Positions 3 through 62,673 are shown, counted from the first letter of the stretch. The stretch: 64,000 nt of DNA from a virus (IMGVR_UViG_3300029288_000136); one strand, 5' to 3'. Notes: a model not told the origin generated them from the sequence alone. Numbers and translations: made by a program.

Positions 3-2744
3 TTAACCTGTGATCTTGACGTTGAACTGATATTCAGTGAATGGTGTTATCAGGAATCAGCTACAGTATTCAATCAAAGTGGAATGGATGGAAGTTGTGG
101 TCTTAGATACAATGGATCATATTCTCTTCCAACACTGTATCACCCGATCAATATCGTAGATGGTAATGATTCGACAAGCGCTACTGGAAGCTATCTATAT
201 GTCAATTACACCAAACCAGATAATTCTGTTAATACAAGTTTATGGAGAGTTAAAGCAGTGTTTGAGGAATCAGCTGAGATAAGGAATCTATCAATACCTT
301 ATCCCTGTTGGAATTACTCTGAAGTTACATTAAATCTAAGAGCTTATGCGTGTGGATTCGATTGGTATTCATGTTCTTCAGAGGATGATGATTCAGTAGG
401 GTTCTCCTGTTGGAATGGAAGCAGTTGGCAGAACATATACAATCATAGCAATGTTTCAGTCCAATATTCTATGTATGAGGAAGGGATGTGGTGGAATATA
501 AGCGAGGAAAAGTATTCTTTTTACTCATGGAATGGAAACAAGTGGATATATGATATGGAACCTTTGATAAGGGTTAATTGGAGCTGTCCAAGAGGGAAGA
601 ACTACTGCACTCCAAGATATCAGAATAGCAGTCAGGGAGTTATGATGATATATAATAAGAGAAACATGAGTGGAGCATATATGAGACTCAATCAAACATC
701 TGATTATATTACTGTATTCTGCGGAAACAACGCATCATATACTTCTGATTATGTTAGAACCATTAATACTGATTGGAAGAAGGTATGCGATCTTGACATA
801 TATGAGAATTGTACCTTGTGGTGTTGGGTTAACAACTCACTTAACTCTTCTTTGTATGGTTATTCTTCTTTTTTGTTTGATATGAACTTCTCTAATTTCC
901 CTACGATATACTTTGAAGAACCAACTGAAGACAATGGCACATATATCTCTGAGAACCATACCAAGATAGTGTTGTATTCTTCTTTTACTGATGAGGATGC
1001 TGCTTCTAATATTTCATTCAATTGGAATGATGAGATTAATATGAGTATATTTGATGATTCTCTTGTTCTAAGTTTGAACTTCGACAATAACTCATATATC
1101 GGGGAGAATTCTATTACTGCTAAAGACACATCAAAATATAATGCAACAATAACACATTCACTTCAATCTATAGAAGGTAAATTTGGAAAAGCATTAAACT
1201 ATACTGGAAGTTCGGGTACTGGAATAGCTGGTTCTCCTTATGACATATATGATACTCCACAATTCACTTTGGAAGCATGGATATACCAGTTAAACAGGAC
1301 TGGAACAGTTGCAAATAAAGGGATTGTTGCAGGTAGAAGTTTTCGATGGCCATACTGTATGTATATATCAAATACAGGATATATTGTTAGTGGATTAACT
1401 TGGTCAGATGATAATACAGAGTATACTACAGTCAGCAATAATATAATTCCTCTCAATACATGGACACATGTTGCATTATCTTATAATGGTAGCCACGTAA
1501 TTACCTGGATAAACGGAGTATTTGATAAATCTACTGCAAAAAACAAAGACTTGAAACTTGGAACAAATAACAATTTCAAGATAGGTTATTTGGATACTAC
1601 GAACTACTTTAACGGAACAATAGATGAAGTTAGATTATATAATAGAAGTCTTTCAAATGAAGAGATAAGATTACACTACTTAATTAACTTAAAGTATAAA
1701 CTGCCAAATGAATATGAGATAACCATGAATATAACAAACCTAACAGATGGAGAATACCACTACCAAGGATGGTCCCAGAATAGCGAGGGACATGGGGCTG
1801 AAACAGAAAGAAGAACACTATATGTCAATAAAGAAGCTCCAGTGTTGACCTTCCAAGACCCTACCCCCATAGATGAGGAATCTTTAACCAATAATTGGGT
1901 AGATATCAATGTAAGTATATCGGATGTTGCTAGGAATACTTTTGGAGTAACATGGGGATCAACCAACTGCTCAATAGACGATACCTATCTTAAATTAGCT
2001 TTAAACTTCAACAATAACTCAGAGATAGGAGACAACTCAACATATTCAGTGGATATATCAAGATATGAGAACAATGGAGTAATATCTAATGGAAGCTATG
2101 TTGAAGGAAAGTTTGGACTTGGATTAAACTTCAATACTTCATCAAGAATAACAATACAAGATATGAGTAACATATCCAAGAGCTATACAATAATGCATTG
2201 GCTTAAACCTAACCCAACATCATACAATTATCCTCCAATATTATACAAGAAATCAGGTAATAATGGATTCCTTGAATACTTTAGAAAGGCTACAAATGAG
2301 GTAAGACTAGTCATGTATAACTCATCTGGAACCAATTTTGAATGCCAACAAACAAGCGACTACTGGATCAACACATGGAAACAAGTAGTGTGGACATATT
2401 CCAATTATAGCGGAGAGACAAAGTTATACCTTGACGGAACACTATCAAAGACATGCACAAACCAAAAAGACATAATAACGAACAGTGCGGACCTATTGAT
2501 CGGATCAGATGGAACATACGGATACAATGGAACAATAGACGAGTTAAGGATATATAGTAGAGTGTTGTCAGCAGAGGAAATAGCAATACAATATAAATCA
2601 GAATACACAAGATATAATGACAGTACTTATAGATTCATAACTAATATGAGCGCTGGAACAGGAACACAGAAGTTCTCAGCGTGGGCCAAAGACAACATGA
2701 ACAACTATGGGACAACAGAGATTAGAACAGTATATATCAATTGA
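3..2744 (+). CDS. LamG/concanavalin-A-like lectin domain fibre or receptor-binding protein, 5' end outside window
   Basis: Reading frame is open from nt 3 to the first ATG at 84, so the gene is truncated by the window edge. There are two LamG-type motifs: NGTIDEVRLYNRSLSNEEI and NGTIDELRIYSRVLSAEEI. The protein is N/S/T/Y/W-rich with dozens of N-x-S/T sequons. Confidence 0.6.
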   Translation, partial: LTCDLDVELIFSEWCYQESATVFNQSGMDGSCGLRYNGSYSLPTLYHPINIVDGNDSTSATGSYLYVNYTKPDNSVNTSLWRVKAVFEESAEIRNLSIPYPCWNYSEVTLNLRAYACGFDWYSCSSEDDDSVGFSCWNGSSWQNIYNHSNVSVQYSMYEEGMWWNISEEKYSFYSWNGNKWIYDMEPLIRVNWSCPRGKNYCTPRYQNSSQGVMMIYNKRNMSGAYMRLNQTSDYITVFCGNNASYTSDYVRTINTDWKKVCDLDIYENCTLWCWVNNSLNSSLYGYSSFLFDMNFSNFPTIYFEEPTEDNGTYISENHTKIVLYSSFTDEDAASNISFNWNDEINMSIFDDSLVLSLNFDNNSYIGENSITAKDTSKYNATITHSLQSIEGKFGKALNYTGSSGTGIAGSPYDIYDTPQFTLEAWIYQLNRTGTVANKGIVAGRSFRWPYCMYISNTGYIVSGLTWSDDNTEYTTVSNNIIPLNTWTHVALSYNGSHVITWINGVFDKSTAKNKDLKLGTNNNFKIGYLDTTNYFNGTIDEVRLYNRSLSNEEIRLHYLINLKYKLPNEYEITMNITNLTDGEYHYQGWSQNSEGHGAETERRTLYVNKEAPVLTFQDPTPIDEESLTNNWVDINVSISDVARNTFGVTWGSTNCSIDDTYLKLALNFNNNSEIGDNSTYSVDISRYENNGVISNGSYVEGKFGLGLNFNTSSRITIQDMSNISKSYTIMHWLKPNPTSYNYPPILYKKSGNNGFLEYFRKATNEVRLVMYNSSGTNFECQQTSDYWINTWKQVVWTYSNYSGETKLYLDGTLSKTCTNQKDIITNSADLLIGSDGTYGYNGTIDELRIYSRVLSAEEIAIQYKSEYTRYNDSTYRFITNMSAGTGTQKFSAWAKDNMNNYGTTEIRTVYIN

Positions 2745-2763
2745 ATAAGAAGAGAGGAATAGA

Positions 2764-4476
2764 ATGGTAGATGTAAAAGAGATTGGAGGAAGCGTATGGA
2801 CCTCTATGGGGATACCTGATGAATTCTCAGTATACATAAATAAGAAGGATTATACTGCTCATACTGTGTCATGGAGTCTGACAAAGAAACTAAATGAGAT
2901 AACAACATTTAAGGCATCACTGCTTGGAATAGATGATGATGAGAAACTGGATGTGGCTAAAGGAGAAGACATCAACATACTATTCGATGACGGAATAATA
3001 ATGCAGGGATCAATAGAAAGAGTAACCTATACAACAGATTATAAGACAGAAGTAGAAGGATATGGGGATGAAGGGAAGATGCTTAAGAAGATAATCCCCG
3101 TATGCTGCGAACTATACACTGATTATAAGACTGCAATATATCATATATGTTCCGAGAATGGGGATGGGATTGAACCATTTTATCTTACCCCTGCACCAAA
3201 CATAGAAGACCTTGGAATAGTCATAGCTACAATAAAGTATAAGAGCAAACTTGAAGCAATATCCGACCTTTGCAAGGTAACGGGGAGAGAATGGTGGGTT
3301 GAGACCGATTATGACACATGGATCAGCTACTTATACATGGCATACTTCAAAGGAAGCGAAGACTCAGTTATAACATTCACCGCAGATGGAACCGCTCCAA
3401 ACTGCACTGTAATAAGCTACAAACAAGATATTGAGAACTTATGTAACTCAGTCTATTATACTGGAACAATAAATTCAGTTGAGACCACTGCAAGAATAAC
3501 TGACTCTTATAGGGTTACTGGTTTGAATTGGGGGGACAAATACACTGGTCTAACAGTTGACAGCAACTTATATGAGGCAATGGATGATTCACAGACTATT
3601 ATGAAGTGCAAGAAGAGCGCTAGAACAGCCAATGCAAGGTTTGAAGGTAGGTATGTAAGCATTGGAAGCGATGAAGTAGCCCTGGTGTCAAGCTTCATAG
3701 ACATGGGAGACTACTACCAATATGAGATTGTAAGGGATGTGTTACCTGGTTACCCGGCATCAACCCACCCCATAAGAACAGAGGTGTGTCTTGCTGCAGG
3801 AGGTCCAGGAGCGGATGCTTATGTCATTGTATCCGGGAGTGATGAGGACTTGGCTGCTTTACCTGCTGTCGGAGTGTTAAAGATAGGATCACAGGATTAT
3901 ATCATATCATCAACCACCACAACTGAAGAGGATGAGGAAGGAAATATGGTTGGATTGATAAAGATGGAGTCCAGAGGATACCTCGATGAATCCCTGTATA
4001 CTGAATTACCTTTCAGTCCTGAGATAACCGGTCTACCATACAAACACAGTGAAGGATCCCTCATATTCTATTGGTATGATATGGCGGTGGCGATATATAA
4101 CCCAACCCATCCATACAGTGGATCATCTGTAGCCCTTGATGGATTATCAGAGAAATGGTACTCAGATACTTCAATAGATACATTGGACGGATTGGATCAA
4201 GCAGCATATAGTAAGCTGAACACTGAGACAATGAAGACAATAACAATAGAAGTATGCGACCCATATGAGATATTCCCATTGATAAGGATCGGAGATGTAG
4301 TATCATTCAACGATTCAGAGACTACTTTAACAGGAGACTACAGGGTGTTAGGATATACTCTTGGAATGGATCAAGGACAAATATCTCTTAAATACACAAT
4401 TAGTCAAAACTATGTGACATGTATTGATGACCTTGCAAAGACAACAAAAGATGTCAAGAACCTAACACTACATTAA
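2764..4476 (+). CDS. structural protein of unknown function (tail/baseplate candidate)
   Basis: 570-aa ORF starting 19 nt after the fibre gene on the same strand. No motif recognised. Confidence 0.45.
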   Translation: MVDVKEIGGSVWTSMGIPDEFSVYINKKDYTAHTVSWSLTKKLNEITTFKASLLGIDDDEKLDVAKGEDINILFDDGIIMQGSIERVTYTTDYKTEVEGYGDEGKMLKKIIPVCCELYTDYKTAIYHICSENGDGIEPFYLTPAPNIEDLGIVIATIKYKSKLEAISDLCKVTGREWWVETDYDTWISYLYMAYFKGSEDSVITFTADGTAPNCTVISYKQDIENLCNSVYYTGTINSVETTARITDSYRVTGLNWGDKYTGLTVDSNLYEAMDDSQTIMKCKKSARTANARFEGRYVSIGSDEVALVSSFIDMGDYYQYEIVRDVLPGYPASTHPIRTEVCLAAGGPGADAYVIVSGSDEDLAALPAVGVLKIGSQDYIISSTTTTEEDEEGNMVGLIKMESRGYLDESLYTELPFSPEITGLPYKHSEGSLIFYWYDMAVAIYNPTHPYSGSSVALDGLSEKWYSDTSIDTLDGLDQAAYSKLNTETMKTITIEVCDPYEIFPLIRIGDVVSFNDSETTLTGDYRVLGYTLGMDQGQISLKYTISQNYVTCIDDLAKTTKDVKNLTLH

Positions 4477-4477
4477 C

Positions 4478-4585
4478 TTATTGCAGTAATATACAATAAT
4501 ACTTCAATAATACTGCAGTAATATATAATAACACCGCAGTATTATTCAATACTACTGCAGTATTATTCAATAAGTATAGTAGTAT
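4478..4585. repeat. four tandem 22-30 bp repeats with CTGCAG/GCAGTA cores
   Basis: TGCAGTAATATAyAATAA occurs twice, followed by GCAGTATTATTCAATA twice, in the AT-rich spacer upstream of the protease gene. Confidence 0.6.
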
Positions 4586-4646
4586 ATATAGATGTTTGAC
4601 TATTAAATAATAAATAAAATAATCAAATAAGATCAACACAAACAAA

Positions 4647-5957
4647 ATGACAATAATGAAGAATGGAACAATAGTAGAAGATAGAAAACTAACACAAAAA
4701 GAAAGATTCGACCTACAACTACTTGAAAGCATAAGATCAATAAGTCCAAACTGCATAGGAATAGCCAAAGGAACAAAGATAACAGAAGGAAAAGACACTG
4801 GGATGCCAGCATACAAGCTATTCGTAAAGAAGAAACTACCAATAGAAAAGATACCAACAGGAGAAATGCTTCCAAAAGTGCTTGGAACACAAGATGAAAG
4901 ACTACCAACAGACGTACAAGAACTAGGAGAGATCTATATAACATCAATGCTCAAAACCAAAAGAAGCAATAAACAGAAGATAAAGAACATAATACAAAGA
5001 ATACAAGGAATAAGCAGGACAGACAAGGCAAGACCCTTCAAGATGGGAACCAGCGGAGGATGCTGGGACACCACCGCGTTAACCAATGGGATGACCTTCA
5101 AACACATAGAATCAGGGAAGAAGGTCATATTCACCAACGGACACGGATCAGGATGCGACCTAAGAGACGAGATGCCCCTATCAACAGAGAAAAGATACCT
5201 ACAACCAGGACCAGTAGACGGAGGACAACAAGAAGGAAACGTAGTAGGGGAGAGACTAAACCTGGTAAGATACAAGGACGGGAAAGGATGGAATGACGGG
5301 ATGACGGTCATGGTATCCTCGGAAGACTACCTGGATGAGGAGTTGTATGAATTAGGCAGGGTAGTTGGAGTTGATACGCTGGTGGTCGGGGATAAGGTAT
5401 TCAAGTCAGGTAGGACGACAGGAAAGACCGAAGGAAACTGCACATCTCTCAACGCAACAATATCAGTAAACTATGGAAACTACTCCATAACACACCTTGG
5501 ATGCATACTATTCACAGGGATGAGCGCAGGAGGAGACAGCGGATCAGTGATAGTAAAGATCAGGGAAGGTAAGATATATGTGGTAGCCTACCTATTCGCA
5601 GGGAATGAATCAGTGACAGTAGCCCATGAAATACAGAACATGATGAGCATATTCGGATTAGCCCTAACACAGACAGAAGAACCAAACGATCCAATGGAGA
5701 ATACTTACACAATGAATGTGGAAATGGAAAAAGAAACAAATGAGACACCACAAACATGGACAGTAAAAGGAGTCATAACAGATAAGACAACAAAACAACC
5801 AATAAACGGTGTCAATGTAAAGATAGGAGAGATAAACTGCAACACAGGATTGGATGGATCATATGCGGTTAAAGGACTCATAAAAGGGACATATAATACG
5901 CTGTTCTCAATGAGCGGATACAAGCAGATAAACGGATCAATAGTTCTTGGAGGATAA
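4647..5957 (+). CDS. trypsin-like serine protease with C-terminal carboxypeptidase-regulatory-like beta-sandwich domain
   Basis: Has a GDSGS catalytic-serine motif (SAGGDSGSVIV) and a candidate catalytic His (TNGHGSGCD). The C-terminus TWTVKGVITDKTTKQPINGVNVKIGE... resembles a CarbopepD_reg domain. Confidence 0.5.
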   Translation: MTIMKNGTIVEDRKLTQKERFDLQLLESIRSISPNCIGIAKGTKITEGKDTGMPAYKLFVKKKLPIEKIPTGEMLPKVLGTQDERLPTDVQELGEIYITSMLKTKRSNKQKIKNIIQRIQGISRTDKARPFKMGTSGGCWDTTALTNGMTFKHIESGKKVIFTNGHGSGCDLRDEMPLSTEKRYLQPGPVDGGQQEGNVVGERLNLVRYKDGKGWNDGMTVMVSSEDYLDEELYELGRVVGVDTLVVGDKVFKSGRTTGKTEGNCTSLNATISVNYGNYSITHLGCILFTGMSAGGDSGSVIVKIREGKIYVVAYLFAGNESVTVAHEIQNMMSIFGLALTQTEEPNDPMENTYTMNVEMEKETNETPQTWTVKGVITDKTTKQPINGVNVKIGEINCNTGLDGSYAVKGLIKGTYNTLFSMSGYKQINGSIVLGG

Positions 5958-9467: not shown

Positions 9468-9956
9468 TTAGTATATTCCAAAGAACCCTTCCATGTTCCA
9501 ATCCGTACCAATCCTTGGAATCTCATAAGAAACACTTTTGATGACCTCCCAGGAGACTTCCGGCTTGCAGGAGGAAGCATACATAGATAGGAAGTCGCTT
9601 ATTTTAGTGGCATAGGCTTTGAAATGGTGAGGCACTCTCCGGTCATTGAATATGAAGTAGGATTTCACCCCTGCCTTAGATGATTCAGTAAGGGCTGCTA
9701 TCTGGTGTGGTTTGATGTTGGCCCAAGGGAAGTTGTCTTTCTTGCATGACTTCAACTCAAGGAAATAGATATCTCCCCTGAATACGACCAGGTAATCACA
9801 TGGCTGCTCAATGCAACAAAGCTTCTCAGACGCTCTTCTAAATGATTTAGTATCATATAAGCGGTGTTTATAGAATCCTTTTACCTTGGATGATAGCCTG
9901 ATCAATTCTTGATTCACTTCTCGCTCAAACTCATAACCATGATTGTTATTGACCAC
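9468..9956 (-). CDS. PD-(D/E)XK nuclease, Holliday-junction-resolvase (Hjc)-like
   Basis: CDYLVVFRGDIYFLELKSCKKD fits a D...E-x-K core. Sits immediately downstream of the Cas4-like nuclease. Confidence 0.45.
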   Translation of the reverse strand: MVNNNHGYEFEREVNQELIRLSSKVKGFYKHRLYDTKSFRRASEKLCCIEQPCDYLVVFRGDIYFLELKSCKKDNFPWANIKPHQIAALTESSKAGVKSYFIFNDRRVPHHFKAYATKISDFLSMYASSCKPEVSWEVIKSVSYEIPRIGTDWNMEGFFGIY

Positions 9957-9962
9957 TTTGAA

Positions 9963-10799
9963 TCAAATACCATTACATGATCCTCTGTAAGCGCAGTAAA
10001 CACATAGCATATTCTCAGATTGGCATGGTAGAATCTCACCTGCCTTCACTTTATCAAGCATCTCAACAGTCTTATCAAGATTCTCCATGAATAACCTTCT
10101 ACCTTTCTCCTTATCAGAACCACTTATCTTAACGGAAACAGGCTTCTCATCTCCAAAGAAAACAAGATACCAATCCCTATCAGATCCAAGACCATTATTA
10201 GACAACAACCACTCATATCCAGCAAGTTGAGTAATATAATCAGAAGACACTTTCTTCTTACCAGTCTTCCAATCAACCTGCTTCAAATCATCAAAGTAGT
10301 CCAGTTGACCTGAAAAAGTATACCCCTTGTAGACAAAATAGAACCTCTTCTCAAGGATACCCTTAGAAAAGTCCATGGGGGTGTCATCAAGCCACATCCT
10401 TGCCTTAACTATGTGCTGTGTGGCCTTATCCCTTGCTTCCAGGAATACTGTTTCAGGTATTCCATCCGAATGTTCTTTAAGCAGTCCTTTTAAAGATCCA
10501 TCCTCCACTTTTCCTTTAGTGAGCAATTGTTCTATCGCGGAATGAGCAGTAGTTCCTATCAGGCCCCTTATATGTTGAGGTGCTTTCTCTATCTTGAAAT
10601 CAGTGGTATTAGACAGATAAGTGTACTGTAGTTTTCTACCACACTTACCAATTTCAGTAATGTGGATAAAGACTTCCGATCCAATTGACTCTGTGTTTGG
10701 TTGTTCATTCTTTTGTTCAATTGAACCTGTTTGTTCAATAGAATTTTCAGTCAATTCTTCAATAAGTTTTCCAATTGATTGTTTAGTTTCTTCTTCCAT
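9963..10799 (-). CDS. Cas4/RecB-family exonuclease with Fe-S cysteines
   Basis: An N-terminal Cys (CGRK) plus C-terminal C-x8-C-x2-C-x5-C (LPCQSENMLCVYCAYRGSC). QLAGYEWLL matches the Q-h-x-x-Y motif. Confidence 0.6.
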   Translation of the reverse strand: MEEETKQSIGKLIEELTENSIEQTGSIEQKNEQPNTESIGSEVFIHITEIGKCGRKLQYTYLSNTTDFKIEKAPQHIRGLIGTTAHSAIEQLLTKGKVEDGSLKGLLKEHSDGIPETVFLEARDKATQHIVKARMWLDDTPMDFSKGILEKRFYFVYKGYTFSGQLDYFDDLKQVDWKTGKKKVSSDYITQLAGYEWLLSNNGLGSDRDWYLVFFGDEKPVSVKISGSDKEKGRRLFMENLDKTVEMLDKVKAGEILPCQSENMLCVYCAYRGSCNGI

Positions 10800-12020: not shown

Positions 12021-12132
12021 TGTGTGTTTAATTTAATAATTATCAACTACTTTTTGTCTTATTATTTATTAGATAACCAAGTATAAATACTGGAAATTGC
12101 TGGAGCTGGGCAGAAAATAGGAGGATTATTAA

Positions 12133-12199
12133 TTATAAATAATTAAAAATAGAATTATTTTTTAAATCTAATAGGATTTTTAATTATTAATAAAAAATA
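12133..12199. repeat. dispersed ~70-bp AT-rich repeat, copy A
   Basis: TTATAAATAATTAAAAATAGAAT...CTAATAGGATT...TAATTATT, about 85% identical to 45325..45393 in the same orientation. Contains a TTTATAAATA TATA-box-like core on the minus strand. Confidence 0.65.
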
Positions 12200-12218
12200 A
12201 AACCTTCTATTTTCTTAG

Positions 12219-20015: not shown

Positions 20016-21035
20016 TTAGATTGTAATGTCGTCCGCTTTAACTTTTTGCTCTTCATAGCAGCCAAGGGAATGTGCAAGCGTTTTAAGGTTATCCATGTGG
20101 AAGGTTCCCCATTGTCTCATAGCATTAATCAATGTAAGATCAATGGTTTCGGTCAATGAGTAGCCGCTGTTTAGTAGGTGGGCTGCTGTGATTGATTCTC
20201 TTGTGGTGGGGCGGTATGGGTATTCGTCTGTGCTTCTAATGTTCTCGAATAGCTTCAATACCTTAAGCAAGTCATCGCGGTGTTGTGATTCTAGTGTCAG
20301 CTTTCTTTCGACTATTTTGAGTTCGGTGAAGGCTGGGGGATAGTTGTAGACTAGGCGTGCTGAGAATCGTGAGAGTATTTGTTGGGGTAGTTCCTTTGCT
20401 CCAGGGCAGTCAAGGGGATTGATTGAGGCGGTGAAAAACCAGGAGGGTTTAGCGTGTATTGTTAGTCCTTCATAGTTGAGTTCTCGTCTGTCGTCTAGGC
20501 ATTCATTTAAGCGGATTAGGACATCTGGCTCGGATTGATTGATTTCATCTAGCATTAAGATTGAGCCTTCTTCCATTGAGAGGGGGAGTGGTCCTTTTTT
20601 CCAGTTGATGTTTCCGTCCTGTAAATCCAAGCGTCCAAGTAAATGCTGTTCTCTGCAGCGTAGTGAGAGGTTTAGTGAGTGTATGTTTTGGTTGTATTTT
20701 TCTGCCATTAGTAGAATAGAGATCGTCTTGCCACAACCAGGGGGGCCAATGAGTAGGGGGTTGATTCCTTTTTCATACAAGTGGCATAGTTTTCTGAAAT
20801 TGCCTTCCCAGTCGTAGAATTTGCCTCCGCTTAGGTCTTTGAGTATCCAGATTGCTCCAGAACGTATTATGATATCCTTCTGTTTTAGTGAGTCTAGTGC
20901 AGGGTAGATGTTTTGTATGGTGAGCGGTTCTGGGAGATTTAGGGGTTTGCTCCATTCTATGAGTTCTGTGGGTGAGCCTTTCTTGTGTTGGTCCAGTATT
21001 GATACCAGTATTCCTTCTATTTGTGCTTTATCCAT
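20016..21035 (-). CDS. MoxR-family AAA+ ATPase (CobS/NorQ/CbbQ-like)
   Basis: Walker A LLIGPPGCGKT and Walker B ILMLDEINQ. AAA_5-like, 339 aa. Confidence 0.75.
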   Translation of the reverse strand: MDKAQIEGILVSILDQHKKGSPTELIEWSKPLNLPEPLTIQNIYPALDSLKQKDIIIRSGAIWILKDLSGGKFYDWEGNFRKLCHLYEKGINPLLIGPPGCGKTISILLMAEKYNQNIHSLNLSLRCREQHLLGRLDLQDGNINWKKGPLPLSMEEGSILMLDEINQSEPDVLIRLNECLDDRRELNYEGLTIHAKPSWFFTASINPLDCPGAKELPQQILSRFSARLVYNYPPAFTELKIVERKLTLESQHRDDLLKVLKLFENIRSTDEYPYRPTTRESITAAHLLNSGYSLTETIDLTLINAMRQWGTFHMDNLKTLAHSLGCYEEQKVKADDITI

Positions 21036-22472: not shown

Positions 22473-22672
22473 GTTAAGAAATTATAAGGAGGCTGGTGTG
22501 AGGAATTAGCTCACATCTGCTTCATCAGTTGTTTTAATCACTTTCGGAAGCTGTCTTACACGGATTCTTCAAGGGTGAAAGGTATGAAGGTACCATTTGC
22601 TTGAAGTTCCCCATTAGACGAACCAGCCATCTTTACATATTTGATTTTAATATTAATCTACATCAATACTAC

Positions 22673-22753
22673 TCAAAAACACCTAATTTTATCAAATTCT
22701 GAAACGGAACCATATTTACAATGCTTGCATATCCAATCGTCAATCTTACTCAT
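22673..22753 (-). CDS. 26-aa CxxC mini-ORF, last cassette of junction array
   Basis: MSKIDDWICKHCKYGSVSEFDKIRCF, preceded by the conserved junction GGAGGGAATGAACG-ATG. Confidence 0.25.
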   Translation of the reverse strand: MSKIDDWICKHCKYGSVSEFDKIRCF

Positions 22754-22788
22754 CGTTCATTCCCTCCTTTGCAATCTGTCTCTAATGT

Positions 22789-22863
22789 TTCCCCATGTTG
22801 GGAATCGAACCCACACCCCAGGGTAATATTACCTCCCCAAAGGCTCCATTCCAGGACTAGGGG
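22789..22863 (-). tRNA. tRNA-like element (possible degenerate tRNA or att-type tRNA fragment)
   Basis: Minus strand reads a canonical T-arm G(T)GGG-TTCGATT-CCCA(A), then CATGGGG-A. The candidate 5' strand CCCCTAG pairs with two central mismatches. D and anticodon arms were not foldable by hand. Confidence 0.35.
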
Positions 22864-22875
22864 ATTTCGATCCAT

Positions 22876-23016
22876 TTATGCTAGCTCGGCTTTGGCTTCC
22901 ATTATATCTCGTTCTTCTATCTTTTTGCCTAGCAATTCCTTCGCTTTTTTAATTGCCTCTTGCTCGCTCTCTGCCTCAACCGTAGGGCAGACCGTTATAT
23001 AAACATTGTAGTCCAT
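22876..23016 (-). CDS. 46-aa mini-protein in cassette array
   Basis: MDYNVYITVCPTVEAESEQEAIKKAKELLGKKIEERDIMEAKAELA. Its stop abuts the tRNA-like element. Confidence 0.25.
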   Translation of the reverse strand: MDYNVYITVCPTVEAESEQEAIKKAKELLGKKIEERDIMEAKAELA

Positions 23017-23027
23017 TTTGAATCTTA

Positions 23028-23192
23028 TTAAGTGTTATATCCGCAGTCATAGCATACAAGATCTTTATATTCTCCTTCCATAGTACATACATCGGTGTTC
23101 TGAGAACCGCATCTAGGGCATTTATCGCCCTTCCTTTGCTTCTGCTCAGCCGTTGAATCTGGATAGGTTTTATAACAATGCTTTTTGTTCAT
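23028..23192 (-). CDS. 54-aa zinc-ribbon cassette protein
   Basis: MNKKHCYKTYPDSTAEQKQRKGDKCPRCGSQNTDVCTMEGEYKDLVCYDCGYNT, preceded by the junction variant GGAGGGGATGAATG-ATG. Confidence 0.35.
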   Translation of the reverse strand: MNKKHCYKTYPDSTAEQKQRKGDKCPRCGSQNTDVCTMEGEYKDLVCYDCGYNT

Positions 23193-23205
23193 CATTCATC
23201 CCCTC

Positions 23206-23412
23206 CTAATGGTTTATTGCTTGGGTTAGGTCTTGTTCTGAAATTATATTTCCTTTATCATCGCTAACTACAAGAAAAACCGCTTTTATCGTTTTAAGAT
23301 ACTCACAGGTTAAAGTTCCTTCTACACAGAACTTATACCAAAACTCAGCCTCAGTTGCCTTCAACATTGATATTTTCCCATCTTTATAATTAATTCTCAG
23401 TTTTACAGTCAT
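23206..23412 (-). CDS. cassette protein (68 aa)
   Basis: Start codon lies inside the conserved junction, and its stop overlaps the next junction. Confidence 0.4.
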   Translation of the reverse strand: MTVKLRINYKDGKISMLKATEAEFWYKFCVEGTLTCEYLKTIKAVFLVVSDDKGNIISEQDLTQAINH

Positions 23413-23415
23413 CGT

Positions 23416-23784
23416 TCATTCCCTCCTTTTAATCTCTGTCTCTTTCGATTTTTCTTCTATTGGCTTATAATCCGGGCAATCCGACATCTCGCCATAACAA
23501 TAGAAAAAGCATTGTTCTTGTATTTCACTACTTGGATTATGACACCAATCGCCATGTAAAAACTTGCAGTCGGGACAGATACATGCAAGAGTGCCCTTTT
23601 CAATAACTCCCACCCCCTTCAAACGAGCAATCTCCTGGTCCTTCTCTTTGTGGTCTGGAAAGTAATGGTCCTCAACGCAGGACATACAACAAAAAACATA
23701 CTCGTCCCCATCCGCTTCTATCACTCTGATTGCATCAAAAGAGCTAAACACGCCCTTGCAAGCCTCACAACCAAGTTTAGTCAT
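23416..23784 (-). CDS. Cys-rich cassette protein (122 aa), C-terminus ...KRRE
   Basis: Multiple CxxC pairs. The C-terminal KRRE-stop is encoded by the conserved junction. Confidence 0.4.
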   Translation of the reverse strand: MTKLGCEACKGVFSSFDAIRVIEADGDEYVFCCMSCVEDHYFPDHKEKDQEIARLKGVGVIEKGTLACICPDCKFLHGDWCHNPSSEIQEQCFFYCYGEMSDCPDYKPIEEKSKETEIKRRE

Positions 23785-23787
23785 CGT

Positions 23788-23994
23788 TCATTCCCTCCTT
23801 TTTTCTCTGTCTCTTTCGATTATTTTTTTTGTTTTGTCAAGGAAAACCTCGAGAGCCGCATCCTTGACCTTCTGGTACTCAGCCAATGCCGGAGCCTCGA
23901 CCTTCTGGTACTCAGCCCAGAAAACTAATACCTCTTTCTCGTTCCTCTTGATCGCATTAAGATTTTCCTTAGAAAAAACCATATTATAGCTCAT
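23788..23994 (-). CDS. cassette protein (68 aa), C-terminus ...KRRE
   Basis: Junction at both ends. It shares a 17-nt block with the previous gene but reads it in a different frame. Confidence 0.4.
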   Translation of the reverse strand: MSYNMVFSKENLNAIKRNEKEVLVFWAEYQKVEAPALAEYQKVKDAALEVFLDKTKKIIERDREKRRE

Positions 23995-23997
23995 CGT

Positions 23998-24174
23998 TCA
24001 TTCCCTCCTTTTAACTGTTTCTAATGATTTATTCTCGTAGCCCTGCGCACGTTTCAGAATGGCTTTATATTCCTTGTCTGTATACTGCCGTCCGCATCTG
24101 GGGCATTCTCCGATCCGGGGGTCGAAGTCGCTTTCTTCAAGCAAAACCTTACACCTTGTGCAATATGCGTCCAT
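23998..24174 (-). CDS. 58-aa zinc-ribbon cassette protein, C-terminus ...KRRE
   Basis: MDAYCTRCKVLLEESDFDPRIGECPRCGRQYTDKEYKAILKRAQGYENKSLETVKRRE. The stop TGA lies inside the junction. Confidence 0.35.
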   Translation of the reverse strand: MDAYCTRCKVLLEESDFDPRIGECPRCGRQYTDKEYKAILKRAQGYENKSLETVKRRE

Positions 24175-24500
24175 TATCCTTTATGACCCTCTGTCTCTTT
24201 CGATTCTTTCCATTTTAACCCGGCACAGCTAATAATGTCCTTTGCCTGAATCAAGTCATGATATAGCCGTGCGTTCTCGGCTTTCAGTTCCGCTATTTCT
24301 CCCTTCATCCTTGCAGCTTCAATATAACATGAATCCGCTTTAAGGCTCATAATCTCCTGGTCCTTCTTCTTTAGTTCATTTAGAAGGCGTAAACAATCTT
24401 TATGGTCCAGTTCTAGTCCTCGGTGATTTAGCGTTCCCTCATAAAGTAATTGCTTCCACTCATCCCAATTCTGAGAATTCAAAACTTGTGTTTTGTCCAT
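24174..24500 (-). CDS. coiled-coil cassette protein (108 aa)
   Basis: Ends ...SKETEGHKG. Its TAA overlaps the next ATG (TAATG). Confidence 0.4.
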   Translation of the reverse strand: MDKTQVLNSQNWDEWKQLLYEGTLNHRGLELDHKDCLRLLNELKKKDQEIMSLKADSCYIEAARMKGEIAELKAENARLYHDLIQAKDIISCAGLKWKESKETEGHKG

Positions 24501-24501
24501 G

Positions 24502-24708
24502 TTACTGTTTACCCTCTGTCTCTTTGGGATGGTATTTTCCTGAAACTTCTATATCCTCTCCTGATAGTCCGTTTGAATCTATCTCAATCTTATAGCGGGC
24601 AATTCTTCCAGAGTATAGTTCCATCGTTCCTGAAATTTCGGTCGCCCCATCTCGTAGCATTTCCATCACCGCTTCCCCAATCTTGCCCGTCGTGCTAATT
24701 GCGCTCAT
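24502..24708 (-). CDS. first cassette protein (68 aa)
   Basis: Ends ...KETEGKQ. Start preceded by CAAGGAGGGAATGAACG-ATG. Confidence 0.4.
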   Translation of the reverse strand: MSAISTTGKIGEAVMEMLRDGATEISGTMELYSGRIARYKIEIDSNGLSGEDIEVSGKYHPKETEGKQ

Positions 24709-24976
24709 CGTTCATTCCCTCCTTGAACAAGCGATCAAACGAATATTAAAAAACTTACAAAAAGAAGGGAAGGTAGATGTAATAGAAGATAAAAGCCATG
24801 TCGTATTACTTAGAAAATAGGACTCAATTATATGTAAAAAGAAAAATAATCACCAGTTAATCGCTTTAAGTTTCGCTGTTTTCTGGGGTTTTTTATACTT
24901 GGCGTAAAAGTCTTCCCCAACTTGTTTCAACTTACCTAAAACCTCCTTCTCTCTTTCTTTCACCTTTAGGGGAGCA

Positions 24977-25240
24977 TCATATCTTTTCATTTTTCAATAC
25001 ATCATTCAAAAGTTCTTTTCTTATCTTGCTATGCCTAGCGTTTTCTTCTTCATATTTTTTATGGATTTTTTCCATTAGCTCAGATTCATCATAATGTCTT
25101 CCTGTCTCTTTTGACAAGCATTCAAATAAAAGCAAATCAGAAAGAGATTTGTCATGATTGCATATGGAACATCTGTATTCAAAGGGATTAACTCTTATGC
25201 TTTCTGTATCAGTGTTGCAGATGGAGCAAGGGGTTTTCAT
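24977..25240 (-). CDS. zinc-ribbon protein
   Basis: CSICN...CSICN. Confidence 0.35.
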   Translation of the reverse strand: MKTPCSICNTDTESIRVNPFEYRCSICNHDKSLSDLLLFECLSKETGRHYDESELMEKIHKKYEEENARHSKIRKELLNDVLKNEKI

Positions 25241-45282: not shown

Positions 45283-45324
45283 TCTGCTTCAACGGATTGT
45301 AAAAAAAAGAAGGGGATTTTATTT

Positions 45325-45393
45325 TTATAAATAATTAAAAATAGAATAAAAAATTTTTTCTAATAGGATTATTAATTATTTTTAATTAATAAT
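45325..45393. repeat. dispersed ~70-bp AT-rich repeat, copy B
   Basis: About 85% identical to 12133..12199. Lies between the tRNA pair and gene 44842..45282. Confidence 0.65.
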
Positions 45394-54836: not shown

Positions 54837-54945
54837 TAAAAATCGGACTCAAACATTAGAAGCATAAATACTTATACTCTCATAATTACACATTCCAAAC
54901 AATTAATCTTAACATATACTTAATCAACCAAAAATACAAACCACA

Positions 54946-55083
54946 ATGCTCACCAACATAAGAACCCAAATTAAAACAAACCCAGCAGAACCCAATCTCA
55001 TCTTTGATCCTATAACACTAATGACTCTACACTTATTATCAATAAACAAAACCAAATATTGCATCCATCAATCACAATGCTAA
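54946..55083 (+). CDS. upstream mini-ORF 1, paralogue of the terL N-terminus (45 aa)
   Basis: MLTNIRTQIKTNPAEPNLIFDPITLMTLHLLSINKTKYCIHQSQC. The stop TAA follows the next ATG within CAATGCTAA. Confidence 0.35.
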   Translation: MLTNIRTQIKTNPAEPNLIFDPITLMTLHLLSINKTKYCIHQSQC

Positions 55084-55211
55084 CAAACATAGACCTACAA
55101 ATCAAAACAAGCCTCACAACCTCAAACCACATCATTGATCCAATAACATCAAAGACCCCACACCATCTCCAAATAGATAAACCCAAATACAATTACCACC
55201 CACAATGCTAA
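55077..55211 (+). CDS. upstream mini-ORF 2, paralogue of the terL N-terminus (44 aa)
   Basis: MLTNIDLQIKTSLTTSNHIIDPITSKTPHHLQIDKPKYNYHPQC. Its first 11 residues are nearly identical to the TerL start, and its stop overlaps the terL ATG. Confidence 0.35.
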   Translation: MLTNIDLQIKTSLTTSNHIIDPITSKTPHHLQIDKPKYNYHPQC

Positions 55212-56749
55212 CCAATATCGACTTACAGATCAAGACCGGACTAACAACCTCAGACTTCATAATAAAAGGAGCCACAGACTTCAAATACTGGGCCGAAACC
55301 CTATACGACTACACAATCAAACCATACCACATCGAATGGGCCAACAACCTAACACAACAAACACGCTCCTCAACCATCGCAGCAAGAGGACTAGGCAAAT
55401 CACTCATACTAGGAACCCTAATGCCCATCTGGCTAAGCTTCTACGACTACACACCACAGACAACAAACCTAAAAGGAATAGTAATAGCAGCCCAAAACCT
55501 AAGCCAAAGCACTAAACTAATGATGAACATCCGAAACCACATCAACAAAACAGAACTAACACAACTACTCATACCAAAAACAGGAGACTACACCTGGACC
55601 AAAAAAGAAATAAACACCACAACCGACTGGAAAATAAACGTACTACCATACAGCGACAACGCAAGAGGACCACACGTCCCATACCTCCTAATGGAAGAAG
55701 CAGGTCTATTCACCGACCTAGAAATATACACAGACGTATTCCTACCAATGATCCAAAGAGCCAACGGCAACGCAATGTTATTAGGGACCCCAAAAACAGC
55801 ATACGACCTGCTAGCAAGAAGCCAAATACCCGGAAGCGGATACCAGATAAGCAAATACCCCCTAATCAAAAACGGAGAATGCATCCTACCAGAAATATTC
55901 CCCCCAGAACGAATACAACAAATACGAAAAGACATCGGAGAACTAAGCTTCGCAAGAGAATACCTACTCGAAATAGTAGGAGAAGGACGAGCAATAAAAA
56001 CACAACACATAATAGACAGCCTAGACCCAACAGAAACCTTCACCACACTAGGAACCGAAACAGGAGAATACTACATAGGAGCAGACCTAGCACTATCCCC
56101 CACAGGAGACTACACAGTACTAACAGTCATAGAACGCTACAATGGACGCTACCACATCCGCAAAATAGAAGAATACCGCGGCATGAGCTTCGACAACCAA
56201 ATAAACACCATAGCCACCCTATACAAACAATACAACCCCGTCACCCTACTAATAGACGAAAGCAACTTCGGAGGAATAGTAACCCAAAAACTACAAACAC
56301 AATACAACATACCAGCCCAAAGCATCAAATTCCTCCCAACCACCCGCAACACCATGCTCATAAGACTAATAAACACCTTCACATCAAACAAAATAACCAT
56401 ACCACGAAACCCCAACTGCCCCACCACCCTCACACTAACAGACCACCTACTAGACCAAATAAGCAGCCTACACAGCGACAAAACACGCAGCGGCCAAGAC
56501 ACCTACAAAGCATCAACAAAACACGATGATTCTTTAATGTCCCTAGCACTAGCCCTACACGCAGCAGGAGACACAGACAACTACCAAGAAACAGCCATAC
56601 TAACAGCCAAACCACCAACAAACCAAACACAACAAAACAAGATAATACAAGACAACTACTATGAAACAATACAAAAAATGAGACAAAAACCAATAAAAGA
56701 AACCAAAGAATACGGATCAGCCTTCAACAAATGGCTACCACACAACTAA
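55205..56749 (+). CDS. terL: terminase large subunit
   Basis: Deviant Walker A AARGLGKS, Walker B LLMEEAG. C-terminal nuclease-domain acidic motifs are IGADLALSP, LLIDESNFGG and KHDDSLMSLALALH. 514 aa, immediately upstream of the portal candidate. Confidence 0.8.
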   Translation: MLTNIDLQIKTGLTTSDFIIKGATDFKYWAETLYDYTIKPYHIEWANNLTQQTRSSTIAARGLGKSLILGTLMPIWLSFYDYTPQTTNLKGIVIAAQNLSQSTKLMMNIRNHINKTELTQLLIPKTGDYTWTKKEINTTTDWKINVLPYSDNARGPHVPYLLMEEAGLFTDLEIYTDVFLPMIQRANGNAMLLGTPKTAYDLLARSQIPGSGYQISKYPLIKNGECILPEIFPPERIQQIRKDIGELSFAREYLLEIVGEGRAIKTQHIIDSLDPTETFTTLGTETGEYYIGADLALSPTGDYTVLTVIERYNGRYHIRKIEEYRGMSFDNQINTIATLYKQYNPVTLLIDESNFGGIVTQKLQTQYNIPAQSIKFLPTTRNTMLIRLINTFTSNKITIPRNPNCPTTLTLTDHLLDQISSLHSDKTRSGQDTYKASTKHDDSLMSLALALHAAGDTDNYQETAILTAKPPTNQTQQNKIIQDNYYETIQKMRQKPIKETKEYGSAFNKWLPHN

Positions 56750-57474
56750 AACACCAAACTAATCAAGCCACACAATCAACTGACACAATCAACTGACACA
56801 ATCAACTGACACAACTAACAGAGACAACTAACAGAGACAAACAAACCAAAAAACCAACCAAGACAACACAAGTAAACAAAGACAACCAAACACACAACAT
56901 ACCAATATGAATAAGCAAAGACAACTAACACAACTAACAGAAACAACACAACCAAACCACGCAACTAAGCAGACAAAGATAACTAAACCAAACAACAAAC
57001 TAACACAACCAAAACAAGACAACTAAAACAAGACAACTAAACCAAGACAATTAGATCATACAATAAAACCATACAACCAAACCAAGACAGATAAACTAAA
57101 AAAACTAACTAACTCAACTGTTAAGAATCAAAACAACTAACAGAGATAACATAACCAAATCACACAATTAATCAAAATAACTAAACAACACAATTAGATC
57201 ATACAACTAAACCATACAACTAACTAACACAACAAACCAAATAAAACAAATCAAAAACAACCAAACACAAACCAATCAGAAAAATTTAATATAAATACTA
57301 CAATACATATACAACTAATATATACCATACAAAACTAATTAATAAAAAACCAAATAAACAAGCACTAAAACAAACAGATATCAAAACAAATAAATACAAA
57401 AACAAATAAAAACCAAATTAATAAAAAACAAGACTAAAAAACAACAATAACATACAATCAATAAATATTACAAG
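56750..57474. repeat. A/C-rich low-complexity spacer with tandem repeats
   Basis: Plus strand is almost entirely A and C. CACAATCAACTGA x3 (56771-56809), CAACTAACAGAGA x2, ACAAGACAACTAAA x2, and ACAATTAGATCATACAA at both 57051 and 57191. Confidence 0.6.
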
Positions 57475-58893
57475 ATGACAACACCAAATCAAAAAACAAA
57501 AACCCAAAGAAGATCACAACCAATATCAACACACACACAAAACATACAAAACACCGGATTCCAAGGAATAATACCCACACTGCAAAAATTCATGTACGGA
57601 GAACAAAAAACAGACAACACCCCCGAACCGGAAATAGGAAACAAAGGATACAGCACCGGACTAACACTAAACAGGGCAAGCAAAGCAGACCTGGAAGCAC
57701 TATACATAAGCGACCCAGTAATATTCAACGGAATAAACACCTACTACAAAACAATCCTCTCAAACCCCCCAACCCTGACAAACGGATCGGAAAAAGACCA
57801 AAAAAAACTAGACCAATTCAGCAAACAAATAAAACTACAAAGAAGCATAATACCAAGCATAACCCAACACAGCCTCATATACGGAACCGCGTGGAATGAA
57901 AAAATCTACAACAAAGCCCCCAGAGGAAACATCCTACACAAAATACTCGGAATACCCACAAGAGACCCCAAACTAATGGACTTCCTAAGACACCAAAACA
58001 CCAACTACATAAGATTCAACGAAGTAGGAGAACCGGAAGGATACTGCCAATACATAGCTGACGGAATACACTACGAAGGAACCGACACCATAATAAACGG
58101 AACAAACAGCCTAAAAGCCATACCCTTCACCCCAAACAAAATAATGTGGACCAACTACATAGCAGTAGGAGACACCTATGAAGGAATAGGCCTGGTCGAA
58201 CCAATACTAAACAGCTCACTAGACAAAAACAACGCCCAAAAAGGATTCAGCGCATACATCTACCGACTAGGACACGGACTACTAGGCATCAAAGCAGGAA
58301 ACGAAAGATTCATACCCTCAACCGACATGATACACAAAGCCATACAGATCTTCAGCAACATAAACACCGAAACAGTAGTCTCCTACCCCTACTACCTACA
58401 ACCCGAAATGATCGAACCCAAAAGAGGAATAGAACGACTAAGAGAACAAGTAGACTACTTCATAGACCAACAAATAGCCGGAATCGGTTTGCCAGCATGC
58501 TTAGTAACAGGCCAAGGAACTTCTATGAACCGCAGCATCCTGGACAAAATGATGATGCTATTCTACCAAAGCCTCACCATGATCCAAAACAACATATCTA
58601 TAAGCATAGAAGACAACCTATCCCAAGAACTAATGGACATATACGGACTAGACAACCCCCCAAGACTAGAATGGCCCGACATAAACATAGAAAGCATGGA
58701 CAGCAAAGCAAACAGGCTAAGCACATACGCAAAAGCAGGCCTGCTAGGAGCCACCCCAATGCTGCAGACATACATACGACACTCAGAACACCTACCCCAA
58801 GAAGGAGACAACACGCCCAACACGCCAGACACCCAATCAAACGAAGACCAGGAGAACCACAAATCAAAGCTGGATTCAATCCTCGACTTCTAA
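57475..58893 (+). CDS. portal protein candidate
   Basis: 472-aa ORF directly after terL in head-module order. Size and position only, no motif checked. Confidence 0.5.
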   Translation: MTTPNQKTKTQRRSQPISTHTQNIQNTGFQGIIPTLQKFMYGEQKTDNTPEPEIGNKGYSTGLTLNRASKADLEALYISDPVIFNGINTYYKTILSNPPTLTNGSEKDQKKLDQFSKQIKLQRSIIPSITQHSLIYGTAWNEKIYNKAPRGNILHKILGIPTRDPKLMDFLRHQNTNYIRFNEVGEPEGYCQYIADGIHYEGTDTIINGTNSLKAIPFTPNKIMWTNYIAVGDTYEGIGLVEPILNSSLDKNNAQKGFSAYIYRLGHGLLGIKAGNERFIPSTDMIHKAIQIFSNINTETVVSYPYYLQPEMIEPKRGIERLREQVDYFIDQQIAGIGLPACLVTGQGTSMNRSILDKMMMLFYQSLTMIQNNISISIEDNLSQELMDIYGLDNPPRLEWPDINIESMDSKANRLSTYAKAGLLGATPMLQTYIRHSEHLPQEGDNTPNTPDTQSNEDQENHKSKLDSILDF

Positions 58894-61094: not shown

Positions 61095-61372
61095 AAGTTG
61101 TCACTAATCTAAGTGAGAAAAATAGAGACAAAAAACCAGATAAACAACACACAACAAACCAAACACAATAAATTACAAACACAATACATTATAAACACAA
61201 CATATCCCAAACACAATACATTGAGAACACAATATATTAATATGGTTATAATAAATGATGTATTGATTTCTAATATACAATTCCAAATATACAACACCAT
61301 ATCAAATATACTCAATAAATATAAGCAAAAATATAAGTAAATAATCAGATTAAGAATACAAACAAGAAAAGA

Positions 61373-62524: not shown

Positions 62525-62582
62525 GAACAAAACACCAAGAATAAAAACAAAAAAAAACAATAAACAAAAAAAAAGAGAAAAG

Positions 62583-62624
<42 letters not shown>

Positions 62625-62673
62625 TAAGAATAAAAAAAATAAATAAAAACAAACAGGTAAAAAAAAAAACAAG

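Follow-up and report, generated by a model that had tools for sequence, protein, structure and literature searches.

A repeated two-part junction joins small accessory genes in a metagenomic phage and coincides with the edges of their reassortment

The metagenomic phage contig IMGVR_UViG_3300029288_000136 carries a tandem array of ten small open reading frames (ORFs), designated A to J, which lie on the minus strand between positions 24708 and 22673 with stop-to-start distances of -4 to +11 nt. Positions are those of the window, the 64-kb stretch of DNA analysed out of a contig of 84.9 kb. The genes are joined by a junction of two short parts: module 1, a coding linker that ends the upstream gene, and module 2, a 20-nt start region that opens the downstream one. 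Alignment of this locus with other phage contigs established that the junction blocks are repeated, that they are conserved as nucleotides across reading frames and across at least seven unrelated backbones, and that homology between these phages starts and ends at them. The locus probably represents a portable linker and translation-initiation adaptor between tiny accessory genes in a hyperplastic early region of the phage. A first-pass annotation had described cassettes joined by a conserved junction and had suggested a recombinationally shuffled, translationally coupled locus; the observation has been confirmed, and the interpretation is partly supported.

Module 2 is the 20-mer AAGGAGGGAATGAACGATGA. 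Five exact minus-strand copies and one degenerate copy are found within 22,750-24,724, and none elsewhere in the 64 kb. It is the top repeated k-mer of the window outside low-complexity sequence, and it is limited to a single 2-kb stretch. The 17-mer GGAGGGAATGAACGATG matches six times, against 0.15 matches expected, and none of 100 shuffles reaches this number. Exact copies at 22751, 23410, 23782, 23992 and 24706 (minus strand) were found where the first-pass annotation had placed them, and the copy at 23190 differs by two mismatches. The two further variants that it listed, at 24172 and 24498, do not belong to this set, as they carry more than three mismatches and have only the upstream AAAGAGACAGAGGGT block in common with it. 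These junctions use other start contexts, ending in TAACATGGAC and GATAATGGAC, respectively.

The 20-mer comprises AAGGAGG, a 7-nt perfect Shine-Dalgarno (SD) sequence complementary to the canonical 16S 3' end, followed by a 9-nt spacer, the ATG and an A. The segment AATGAACGATGA within it holds two overlapping ATGA motifs and thereby stop codons in two frames. The first TGA closes ORFs read in the K-R-R-E frame (genes C, D and E). The second overlaps the true start codon and closes ORFs read in the K-G-G-N-E-R frame, such as ORF I and several genes elsewhere. When 19 non-redundant junctions from eight sequence contexts were aligned, 18 were identical over all 20 nt, and identity dropped to 35-60% one base beyond the module. 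About 15 different genes follow module 2 in these contexts. The same 20 nt are read as KRRE-stop, as KGGNER-stop or as non-coding DNA, and their synonymous sites never vary; conservation therefore operates at the nucleotide level, on DNA or RNA and not on protein, as the first reading of the sequence had proposed.

Module 1 has the consensus AAAGAGACAG(AG), is about 10-15 nt long, and forms the last conserved stretch of seven upstream ORFs. Its exact form, AAAGAGACAGAG, occurs at 23434, 23805, 24189 and 24514 and nowhere else in the window. The block is read in the K-E-T frame in about 25 of 26 cases, the only exception being gene D. The previously noted difference between KSKETE (gene 23416-23784) and IERDRE (gene 23788-23994), as well as the K-R-R-E-stop tails, were found as described. 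The codons of module 1 are always AAA-GAG-ACA, and ACA makes up just 14% of the Thr codons in the cassette bodies, so that the probability of this triplet is 0.034 per independent copy. Identical nucleotides in a constant frame fit crossovers inside a shared block; they fit a conserved peptide poorly, since that would allow synonymous change. In five cassette families (A, B, 54-aa, 131-aa and 152-aa), alleles are at least 90% identical up to KET and have different tails after it, which places crossovers in module 1. The recurrence of the downstream flank of a tRNA-like element in the fourth junction was also found as reported, with CATTAGAGACAG at 22776-22787 and CATTAGAAACAG at 24015-24026.

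The comparison set was obtained in two ways. When JGI metagenomes were scanned for the two modules together, the contigs L013 and L014 were retrieved, and look-ups of cassette-protein clusters added L059 (which contains L013), L060/L061, L062, L064, L065 and L066. These contigs derive from independent samples and assemblers. Their backbones differ, including D5-type primase with Y1 transposase, integrase with HNH, and methylase with resolvase.

The junctions recur in at least seven other metagenomic phage fragments, where they flank both these and further mini-genes, arranged in different orders. Cassette A of the window (24724-24505) corresponds to L059 9985-10204 and L060 371-590 with 99.5% identity, and its neighbours differ on both sides. 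The left edge of this homology is the first base of module 2, and the right edge lies 8 nt past module 1. Cassette B (24525-24177) corresponds to L062 497-849 with 93% identity, from module 1 to module 1, again with different neighbours. In L014, a homologue of gene D with 86% identity follows another start region. Between the comparison contigs, L060 and L064 are 100% identical over 390 nt and split directly after ATGA, and L060 shares with L066 a block of 91.5% identity that extends from module 1 through the whole of module 2. At the module 1 variant that starts at 22776, the window also shares the 35 nt at 22749-22783 with L059 9971-10005 at 100% identity. Of 15 internal edges of homology, about 13 coincide with one of the two modules. 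The reassortment of cassettes exactly at the junctions, a prediction of the first-pass annotation, was recovered, with A, B and D present elsewhere beside other neighbours and with edges at the modules. The pattern specified beforehand as contrary to it, the same cassettes in the same order with junctions drifting like coding sequence, was absent in the relatives.

Translation signals set the array apart from the remaining genes. GGAGG or AGGAG is present at -20 to -4 in five of six array genes and in 7 of 129 others (Fisher p = 1.3e-5). The geometry is that of a coupled operon, with the short stop-to-start distances and the SD sequence lying within the upstream coding sequence, and translational coupling in the array can be inferred from it. 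The occurrence of a strong SD-type signal on one set of genes in an SD-poor genome points to a separately regulated translation class. For the window as a whole, GGAGG or AGGAG was counted at these positions in 12 of 137 ORFs, five of them in the array. Most starts in the genome have A-rich leaders (..aaaATG, ..ctaacATG), and such SD-poor starts are a hint that SD usage is weak in the host. Gene J is followed by 200 nt of non-coding DNA, in which positions 22485-22492 (minus) read CCTCCTTA on the mRNA strand, which is the canonical anti-SD end of 16S rRNA; a 7-8-mer of the CCTCCTTA type is expected by chance several times in 64 kb.

According to the mechanism favoured here, module 2 would give strong SD-dependent, stop-start-coupled translation to any gene that follows it, in a genome that is mostly SD-less. 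Modules 1 and 2 would in addition offer short homologies at which crossovers could arise by general recombination, single-strand annealing or template switching. Exchange could occur between co-infecting phages and between copies inside one genome. Cassettes would in this way be inserted, deleted or replaced, the upstream reading frame being kept and a ready-made start signal being attached. The perfect conservation might be upheld by continuing exchange, by functional constraint, or by both. The RecU-type Holliday-junction resolvase (9468-9956) and the PD-(D/E)XK exonuclease (9963-10799) encoded in the early block were counted in favour of recombination.

Several points weigh against this explanation. 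Two of the approximately 15 internal homology edges lie off the modules. For homologous recombination to be efficient, the identical stretches are short, at 10-23 nt and at most 35 nt where the two parts adjoin, and no single-strand annealing protein was recognised in the window. The folding energy of the start regions does not differ from that of other start regions in the genome. A simple SD function leaves the invariance of the 9-nt spacer and of the base after the ATG unexplained, and this invariance could instead point to a sequence-specific trans-acting factor. Most of the contigs compared are short, at 1-18 kb, and for several there is one assembly only.

A bolder version of the adaptor explanation is tentative and rather unlikely. 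It holds that the two-part junction would be a selected exchange-and-expression adaptor, a 'phage integron' free of integrase, through which otherwise unrelated phages sharing a host would trade micro-genes, and that a trans-acting factor may recognise the 20-mer. The start region, universal and with stops in two frames, and the in-frame coding linker would keep both frames and expression intact in such trade. An annealing protein, a nuclease or a translational regulator may be candidates for such a factor.

The main rival, which is possible though not likely, is that the junction is mainly regulatory. A protein or small RNA of the phage or the host would bind the 20-mer, and maybe the GAGACAG block, so that early genes are switched jointly, and exchange would be a by-product. 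Such a site could act on mRNA or DNA, as in RegA/RegB-like translational control or as a site resembling start-associated sequences (SAS) or stoperators. This rival is compatible with the adaptor explanation and accounts better for the invariant spacer, because the positions that do not pair with 16S rRNA (spacer GAATGAACG and the A at +4) are invariant in 18 of 19 copies. All copies have one orientation and occur only at early non-structural genes, and a like argument has been made for SAS (PMC3203893). GGAG starts are rare elsewhere in the genome, so a factor specific for GGAG or the 20-mer would be selective. However, no candidate regulator was found, and a search of the window for antisense copies of the junction gave no match reaching 12 nt. 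The junction is also kept in backbones as different as those with integrase, resolvase, D5-primase or MoxR; any such factor would accordingly have to come from the host or be shared by a very wide range of phages. Regulation by itself leaves the one-frame linker of module 1 unexplained.

Serial duplication followed by divergence, in which the junctions would be those remains that are youngest or evolve most slowly, with no part in exchange, is very improbable. Traces of paralogy do exist. The first-pass annotation had called the cassettes unrelated, and they are mostly ORFans; this did not hold throughout, as an exact 17-mer is common to genes B and E (23629-23645 and 24351-24367), a zinc-ribbon stretch of 31 nt is 74% identical between genes C and G, and gene D contains a 33-nt tandem duplication. 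The frame of the linker is also kept, as it would be in duplicates. Duplication is contradicted by the presence of the same cassettes with other neighbours in other genomes, by junctions that are 100% identical next to cassette bodies that are 86-93% identical or unrelated, and by about 15 unrelated genes bearing the junction.

It is highly unlikely that cassettes enter and leave at the junctions through a dedicated recombinase, as in an integron-like system or another site-specific one. The cassettes are small, promoterless and in single orientation, their breakpoints lie exactly at repeated sites, and 21 kb of the 84.9-kb contig fall outside the window. Nevertheless, the cognate recombinase that the first-pass annotation had proposed to look for did not appear: no tyrosine or serine recombinase is present among the window ORFs of at least 150 aa. 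All array junctions are purine-rich (74%) and have neither inverted repeats nor stem-loops. The breakpoints lie at two sequences, module 1 or module 2, and not at a single core site, and the recombinases of the other contigs differ (integrase in L065, resolvase in L066, Y1_Tnp in L064). The least probable alternative, an assembly artefact in which chimeric joins at short repeats mimic reshuffling, draws on L059, L060 and L064, contigs with an end on a junction or no more than about 20 nt from one, where assembly graphs branch, and on contexts seen in single contigs (L062, L014, L065 and L066), but it is extremely unlikely, because such ends are expected if populations hold alternative neighbours, the 20-40-nt repeats are far below the final k of 141 of the ENA contigs, the window order recurs in three independent assemblies, two independent samples yielded identical contigs, L060 and L061, with L013 likewise lying within L059, and common cassettes carry single-nucleotide polymorphisms (SNPs) between contexts, as in the block of cassette A plus the 54-aa gene, where four SNPs make L059 a haplotype separate from L060 and not a chimera.

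The statement of the first-pass annotation that the locus could not be assigned to a known system was too cautious in one respect, since it works like the SAS (PMC3203893) and like the shuffling mediated by promoter early stem-loop (PeSL) elements (PMC2839356). It nevertheless belongs to none of the SAS, PeSL or linker systems, from which it differs in its sequence, its inclusion of the start codon, its in-frame coding linker, its want of a promoter, terminator or hairpin, and its sharing across unrelated backbones. The SAS of Cluster K mycobacteriophages are 13-nt repeats, GGGATAGGAGCCC, for which a role in translation initiation has been proposed and is unproven (Pope et al. 2011, PMC3203893). 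Like the junction, SAS are short asymmetric repeats with an SD core, located in one orientation a few bases before the ATG of many non-structural genes; the upstream stop codon often lies within the repeat, the repeat is attached to varied gene families, and it is conserved at positions unable to pair with 16S rRNA (PMC3203893). The junction differs in being 20 nt long with the start codon included. It lacks the 17-bp inverted repeats of the extended start-associated sequences (ESAS), which accompany about half of the SAS sites, and has instead the direct coding block AAAGAGACAG (K-E-T). Its copies are in one 2-kb array, whereas SAS are spread over half the genome; they are also common to unrelated backbones and coincide demonstrably with recombination breakpoints. 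Membership of the Cluster K lineage finds no backing in nucleotide similarity, which was absent to any deposited phage.

The PeSL of T4-type phages are units of about 100 bp that combine a sigma-70 early promoter with a stem-loop terminator (Arbiol et al. 2010, PMC2839356; Comeau et al. 2014, PMC4122927). Excised mini-circles with a single cassette and one chimeric repeat are a further mark of PeSL. In both systems, the ORFan genes of hyperplastic regions have short conserved regulatory motifs on their flanks, the end-points of insertions, deletions and replacements lie at the motifs, and the motif carries the expression signal along. The junction is, however, a translation start region plus a coding linker without promoter, terminator consensus or stem-loop, and exchange at it keeps the upstream reading frame. 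A scan for promoters and terminators gave no promoter-like match at any junction, and the totals for the region equalled those of shuffles; the promoter type of the host may differ.

The modular theory of phage evolution proposes that homologous recombination is directed to gene boundaries by short conserved sequences, so that modules are swapped without damage to genes. The theory and its linker or boundary sequences reportedly go back to Susskind and Botstein in 1978 and Botstein in 1980, and lambdoid boundary cases are said to have been described by Juhala in 2000 and Clark in 2001. The lambdoid cases are few and debated. The locus fits the linker idea and differs from the lambdoid examples in a linker that is exact, highly repeated, partly coding and associated with many independent breakpoints. 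The stoperators of Cluster A phages such as L5 are DNA sites bound by the repressor, which number about 24-30 per genome, are distributed genome-wide, and contain neither SD sequence nor start codon. They resemble the junction as asymmetric short repeats at stop/start junctions oriented with transcription (stoperators are mentioned in PMC3203893). They differ from it in their distribution, as the junction copies are confined to 2 kb, and in the SD sequence and start codon that the junction includes. Some likeness can also be seen to integrons, of which the next features are relevant. Integron arrays comprise IntI, attI and hairpin-forming attC sites, with one-directional small promoterless cassettes. 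Promoterless cassettes in one orientation, with a content that varies between relatives, are found in both; the phage array has no IntI among the window ORFs of at least 150 aa, no attI and no hairpin attC, and it has two crossover sequences.

The positions of the genes and junction modules are compiled in Table 1.

Table 1. Genes, junction modules and associated features of the cassette array (window positions)
Feature	Position	Strand	Remarks
Non-coding leader, 141 nt	24709-24849	-	Upstream of gene A
Gene A, 68 aa	24502-24708	-	Same cassette at 99.5% in L059, L060 and L061, with other neighbours
Gene B, 108 aa, coiled coil	24174-24500	-	93% cassette in L062, with other neighbours and another tail
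Gene C, 58 aa, zinc ribbon	23998-24174	-	
Gene D, 68 aa, two 33-nt AEYQKV repeats	23788-23994	-	
Gene E, 122 aa, Cys-rich	23416-23784	-	
Gene F, 68 aa	23206-23412	-	
Gene G, 55 aa, zinc ribbon	23028-23195	-	phrog_2945, E = 1.5e-5
Gene H, 46 aa	22876-23016	-	No junction module upstream
ORF I, 41 aa, doubtful	22750-22875	-	Overlaps the tRNA-like relic
Gene J, 26 aa	22673-22753	-	Array end
Module 2, copy 1	24705-24724	-	Precedes gene A; non-coding DNA there
Module 2, copy 2	23991-24010	-	Precedes gene D; encodes the KRRE-stop tail of gene C
Module 2, copy 3	23781-23800	-	Precedes gene E; encodes the KRRE-stop tail of gene D
Module 2, copy 4	23409-23428	-	Precedes gene F; encodes the KRRE-stop tail of gene E
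Module 2, copy 5	22750-22769	-	Precedes gene J; ORF I reads KGGNER-stop, the stop overlapping the ATG (ATGA)
Module 2, degenerate, TAGGAGGGGATGAATGATGA	23189-23208	-	Precedes gene G
Module 1, AAAGAGACAGAG, K-E-T-E	24514-24525	-	End of gene A; followed by the alternative start context of gene B, GGTAAACAGTAACATG
Module 1	24189-24200	-	End of gene B; followed by the start context of gene C, GGTCATAAAGGATAATG
Module 1	23805-23816	-	End of gene D; sole copy outside the K-E-T frame (IERDRE)
Module 1	23434-23445	-	End of gene E (KSKETE)
Module 1 variant, TTAGAAACAG	24015-24024	-	End of gene C (SLETV)
Module 1 variant, TTAGAGACAG	22776-22785	-	3' of the tRNA-like relic
Internal module 1, AAAGAGACAGGAAG (L014 type)	25102-25111	-	Middle of the 87-aa ORF 24977-25240
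Degenerate tRNA-like cloverleaf, 76 nt	22789-22864	-	Only at 80% of the ARAGORN threshold; acceptor and anticodon stems mismatched

The leader is likely the start of the transcription unit; a consensus promoter was not found there. Searches of the ten cassette proteins against Pfam and PHROGs gave no significant family beyond generic zinc-ribbon hints and the phrog_2945 match of gene G. The anti-defence role that the first-pass annotation had raised as a candidate finds no support in these family searches. The first 17 nt of gene J (ATGAGTAAGATTGACGA) match the start of the 54-aa MSKIDELEE cassette in L065, L059 and L060, which makes gene J, the last of the array, a cassette that has been truncated or recombined. 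The 87-aa ORF that precedes the array (24977-25240, minus) has a zinc-ribbon N-terminal half whose ending, ..SKETG, is encoded by AAAGAGACAGGAAG, followed by an unrelated half. It may represent two cassettes fused through loss of a junction.

A third common block, CAAAGAGAAGGACCAGGAGATT (KEKDQEI), is present in the window at 23629-23650 and 24350-24367, at L059 9811-9832, and on the reverse complement of L014 at 483-503. It sits in the middle of otherwise unrelated genes, namely B, E, a 127-aa gene of L059 and a 155-aa gene of L014, and may be an internal recombination patch or a common coiled-coil motif. Gene D has repeats of its own. Its L014 homologue (minus strand, reverse complement 1699-2032) has at least eight tandem 33-nt repeats, encoding 11 aa (AEYQKI-G-A-), and the window has two (23855-23917); the predicted gene D product is a small protein of variable repeat number. 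The phage is represented by three strain-level assemblies: the window, ENA k141_3129407 (L005/L058) and Logan SRR8542065 (L063). They reproduce the cassette order of the window and differ by 2-3 SNPs in about 20.2 kb, all located in gene D (23885, 23898 and 23956). These changes are all non-synonymous (N13K, E33K and L37W), and the chance of three all falling in gene D is about 1e-6. Two of them shift toward the repeat consensus of L014. The pattern suggests diversifying selection or repeat-mediated conversion.

The embedded tRNA-like element of the first-pass annotation is not supported as a functional tRNA. No tRNA was detected there by ARAGORN at default settings or by Rfam at gathering scores, the T-arm hairpin alone giving a score, and only sub-threshold signals remain. 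The fold of the cloverleaf is no better than that of shuffles (z = -0.28). The element is probably a decayed tRNA.

Searches in other databases have delimited the distribution of the junction. Among deposited phages and plasmids, nucleotide searches with the 2.7-kb region and with the 51-nt junction returned nothing significant. IMG/VR was scanned with an 18-mer, with the two modules in relaxed form and with the internal motif KEKDQEI; the matches were only chance singletons (L001-L004 and L015-L041), with the exception of L036. The latter (IMGVR_UViG_3300033149_003707) is a more distant phage that encodes at 113-484 a Cys-rich 123-aa protein ending in KIIEKETEKRREND, with a YopX gene nearby; nucleotide identity between its AAAATAATAGAAAAAGAGACAGAAAAAAGGAGGGAA and the junction of genes D and E in the window is 89%. 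The match of its KETEKRRE tail makes the linker family older and wider than the exact 20-mer. In GTDB, the 20-mer matched 16 unrelated single SD starts in Firmicutes and other bacteria, with no multi-copy host or prophage, and the two-module pattern gave zero matches. Related-locus searches with MoxR and with gene E found nothing, and the gene D query returned its own cluster only. Distant relatives identified through MoxR (41-52% identity) lack the motif and hold other genes between YopX and MoxR, which agrees with the earlier description of a variable accessory region.

Three candidates that arose in these comparisons were discarded. P0032 (484 aa), which had been placed in one protein cluster, proved to be unrelated. 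A RecT-like identity for the gene upstream of the L060/L064 array, and a Gp157-like identity for the 152-aa protein of L062, were unsupported by Pfam or PHROGs. Downstream of the arrays in the otherwise different contigs L065 (7350-7450) and L066 (2774-2874), a 101-nt block with 79% identity and a TTGAC-like hexamer was observed, which may be a common promoter region.

The window carries a tailed-phage gene set, with terminase (55205-56749), Mu-like portal (57475-58893) and tail proteins (84-5957). The early small genes form a long minus-strand block that also includes a MoxR-type ATPase (20016-21035), a VWA protein and YopX. Tested as a composition island, the array has GC content and G-C skew within about 1 SD (standard deviation) of the remaining genome. 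In the NCBI record, the contig is included in a metagenome-assembled genome (MAG) of 'Candidatus Paceibacterota bacterium' (proteins MFA5132802-MFA5132810, locus tags WC444_057xx-058xx). This label is either a binning artefact or a hint at a host from the Candidate Phyla Radiation (CPR); it says little on the host because the gene content is that of a phage.

Other repeats were observed outside the array. Between terminase and portal, about 720 nt of non-coding DNA (56750-57474, plus strand) are nearly all A/C, with a GC skew of -0.49 and an AT skew of +0.60, and contain degenerate 13-14-nt tandem repeats (ACACAATCAACTG x3.5, ACAACTAACAGAG x2.3 and AAGACAACTAAACC x9.8). This stretch could be a packaging or replication site. 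A strong A/C bias extends over the plus strand throughout 54-64 kb, where five 16-nt tandem repeats, CAAACACAATACATTA (61160-61239), and a tract of about 130 nt rich in A-runs, including about 45 consecutive A (62543-62675), are also found. A 63-nt block beginning with CACAATGCTAAC occurs three times with 67-78% identity (54942-55004, 55073-55135 and 55201-55263, plus strand). An ATG with MLTNI-like codons after it is present in each copy, and the third copy forms the beginning of the terminase ORF; the blocks are triplicated N-terminal coding starts upstream of terminase. An 87-nt AT-rich repeat with 75% identity, located in two far-apart intergenic regions (12114-12200 and 45306-45392, plus strand), may be a regulatory or terminator-promoter element.

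The origin of phage mosaics has been seen in two competing ways, as the result of homologous recombination at conserved linker sequences or as that of illegitimate recombination at random, with selection acting afterwards. Nature has provided few clear cases of linkers, and the present locus is an unusually clean one. It offers an exact 20-nt start region and a 10-15-nt coding linker in at least seven backbones and with about 15 mini-genes, the frame being kept, and more than a dozen breakpoints have been mapped at these linkers. The junction could be used as a probe for accessory-gene cassettes in metagenomes. As judged from the genomes compared, the locus is a site where phages swap small genes and a clear new example of a known style of genome shuffling.

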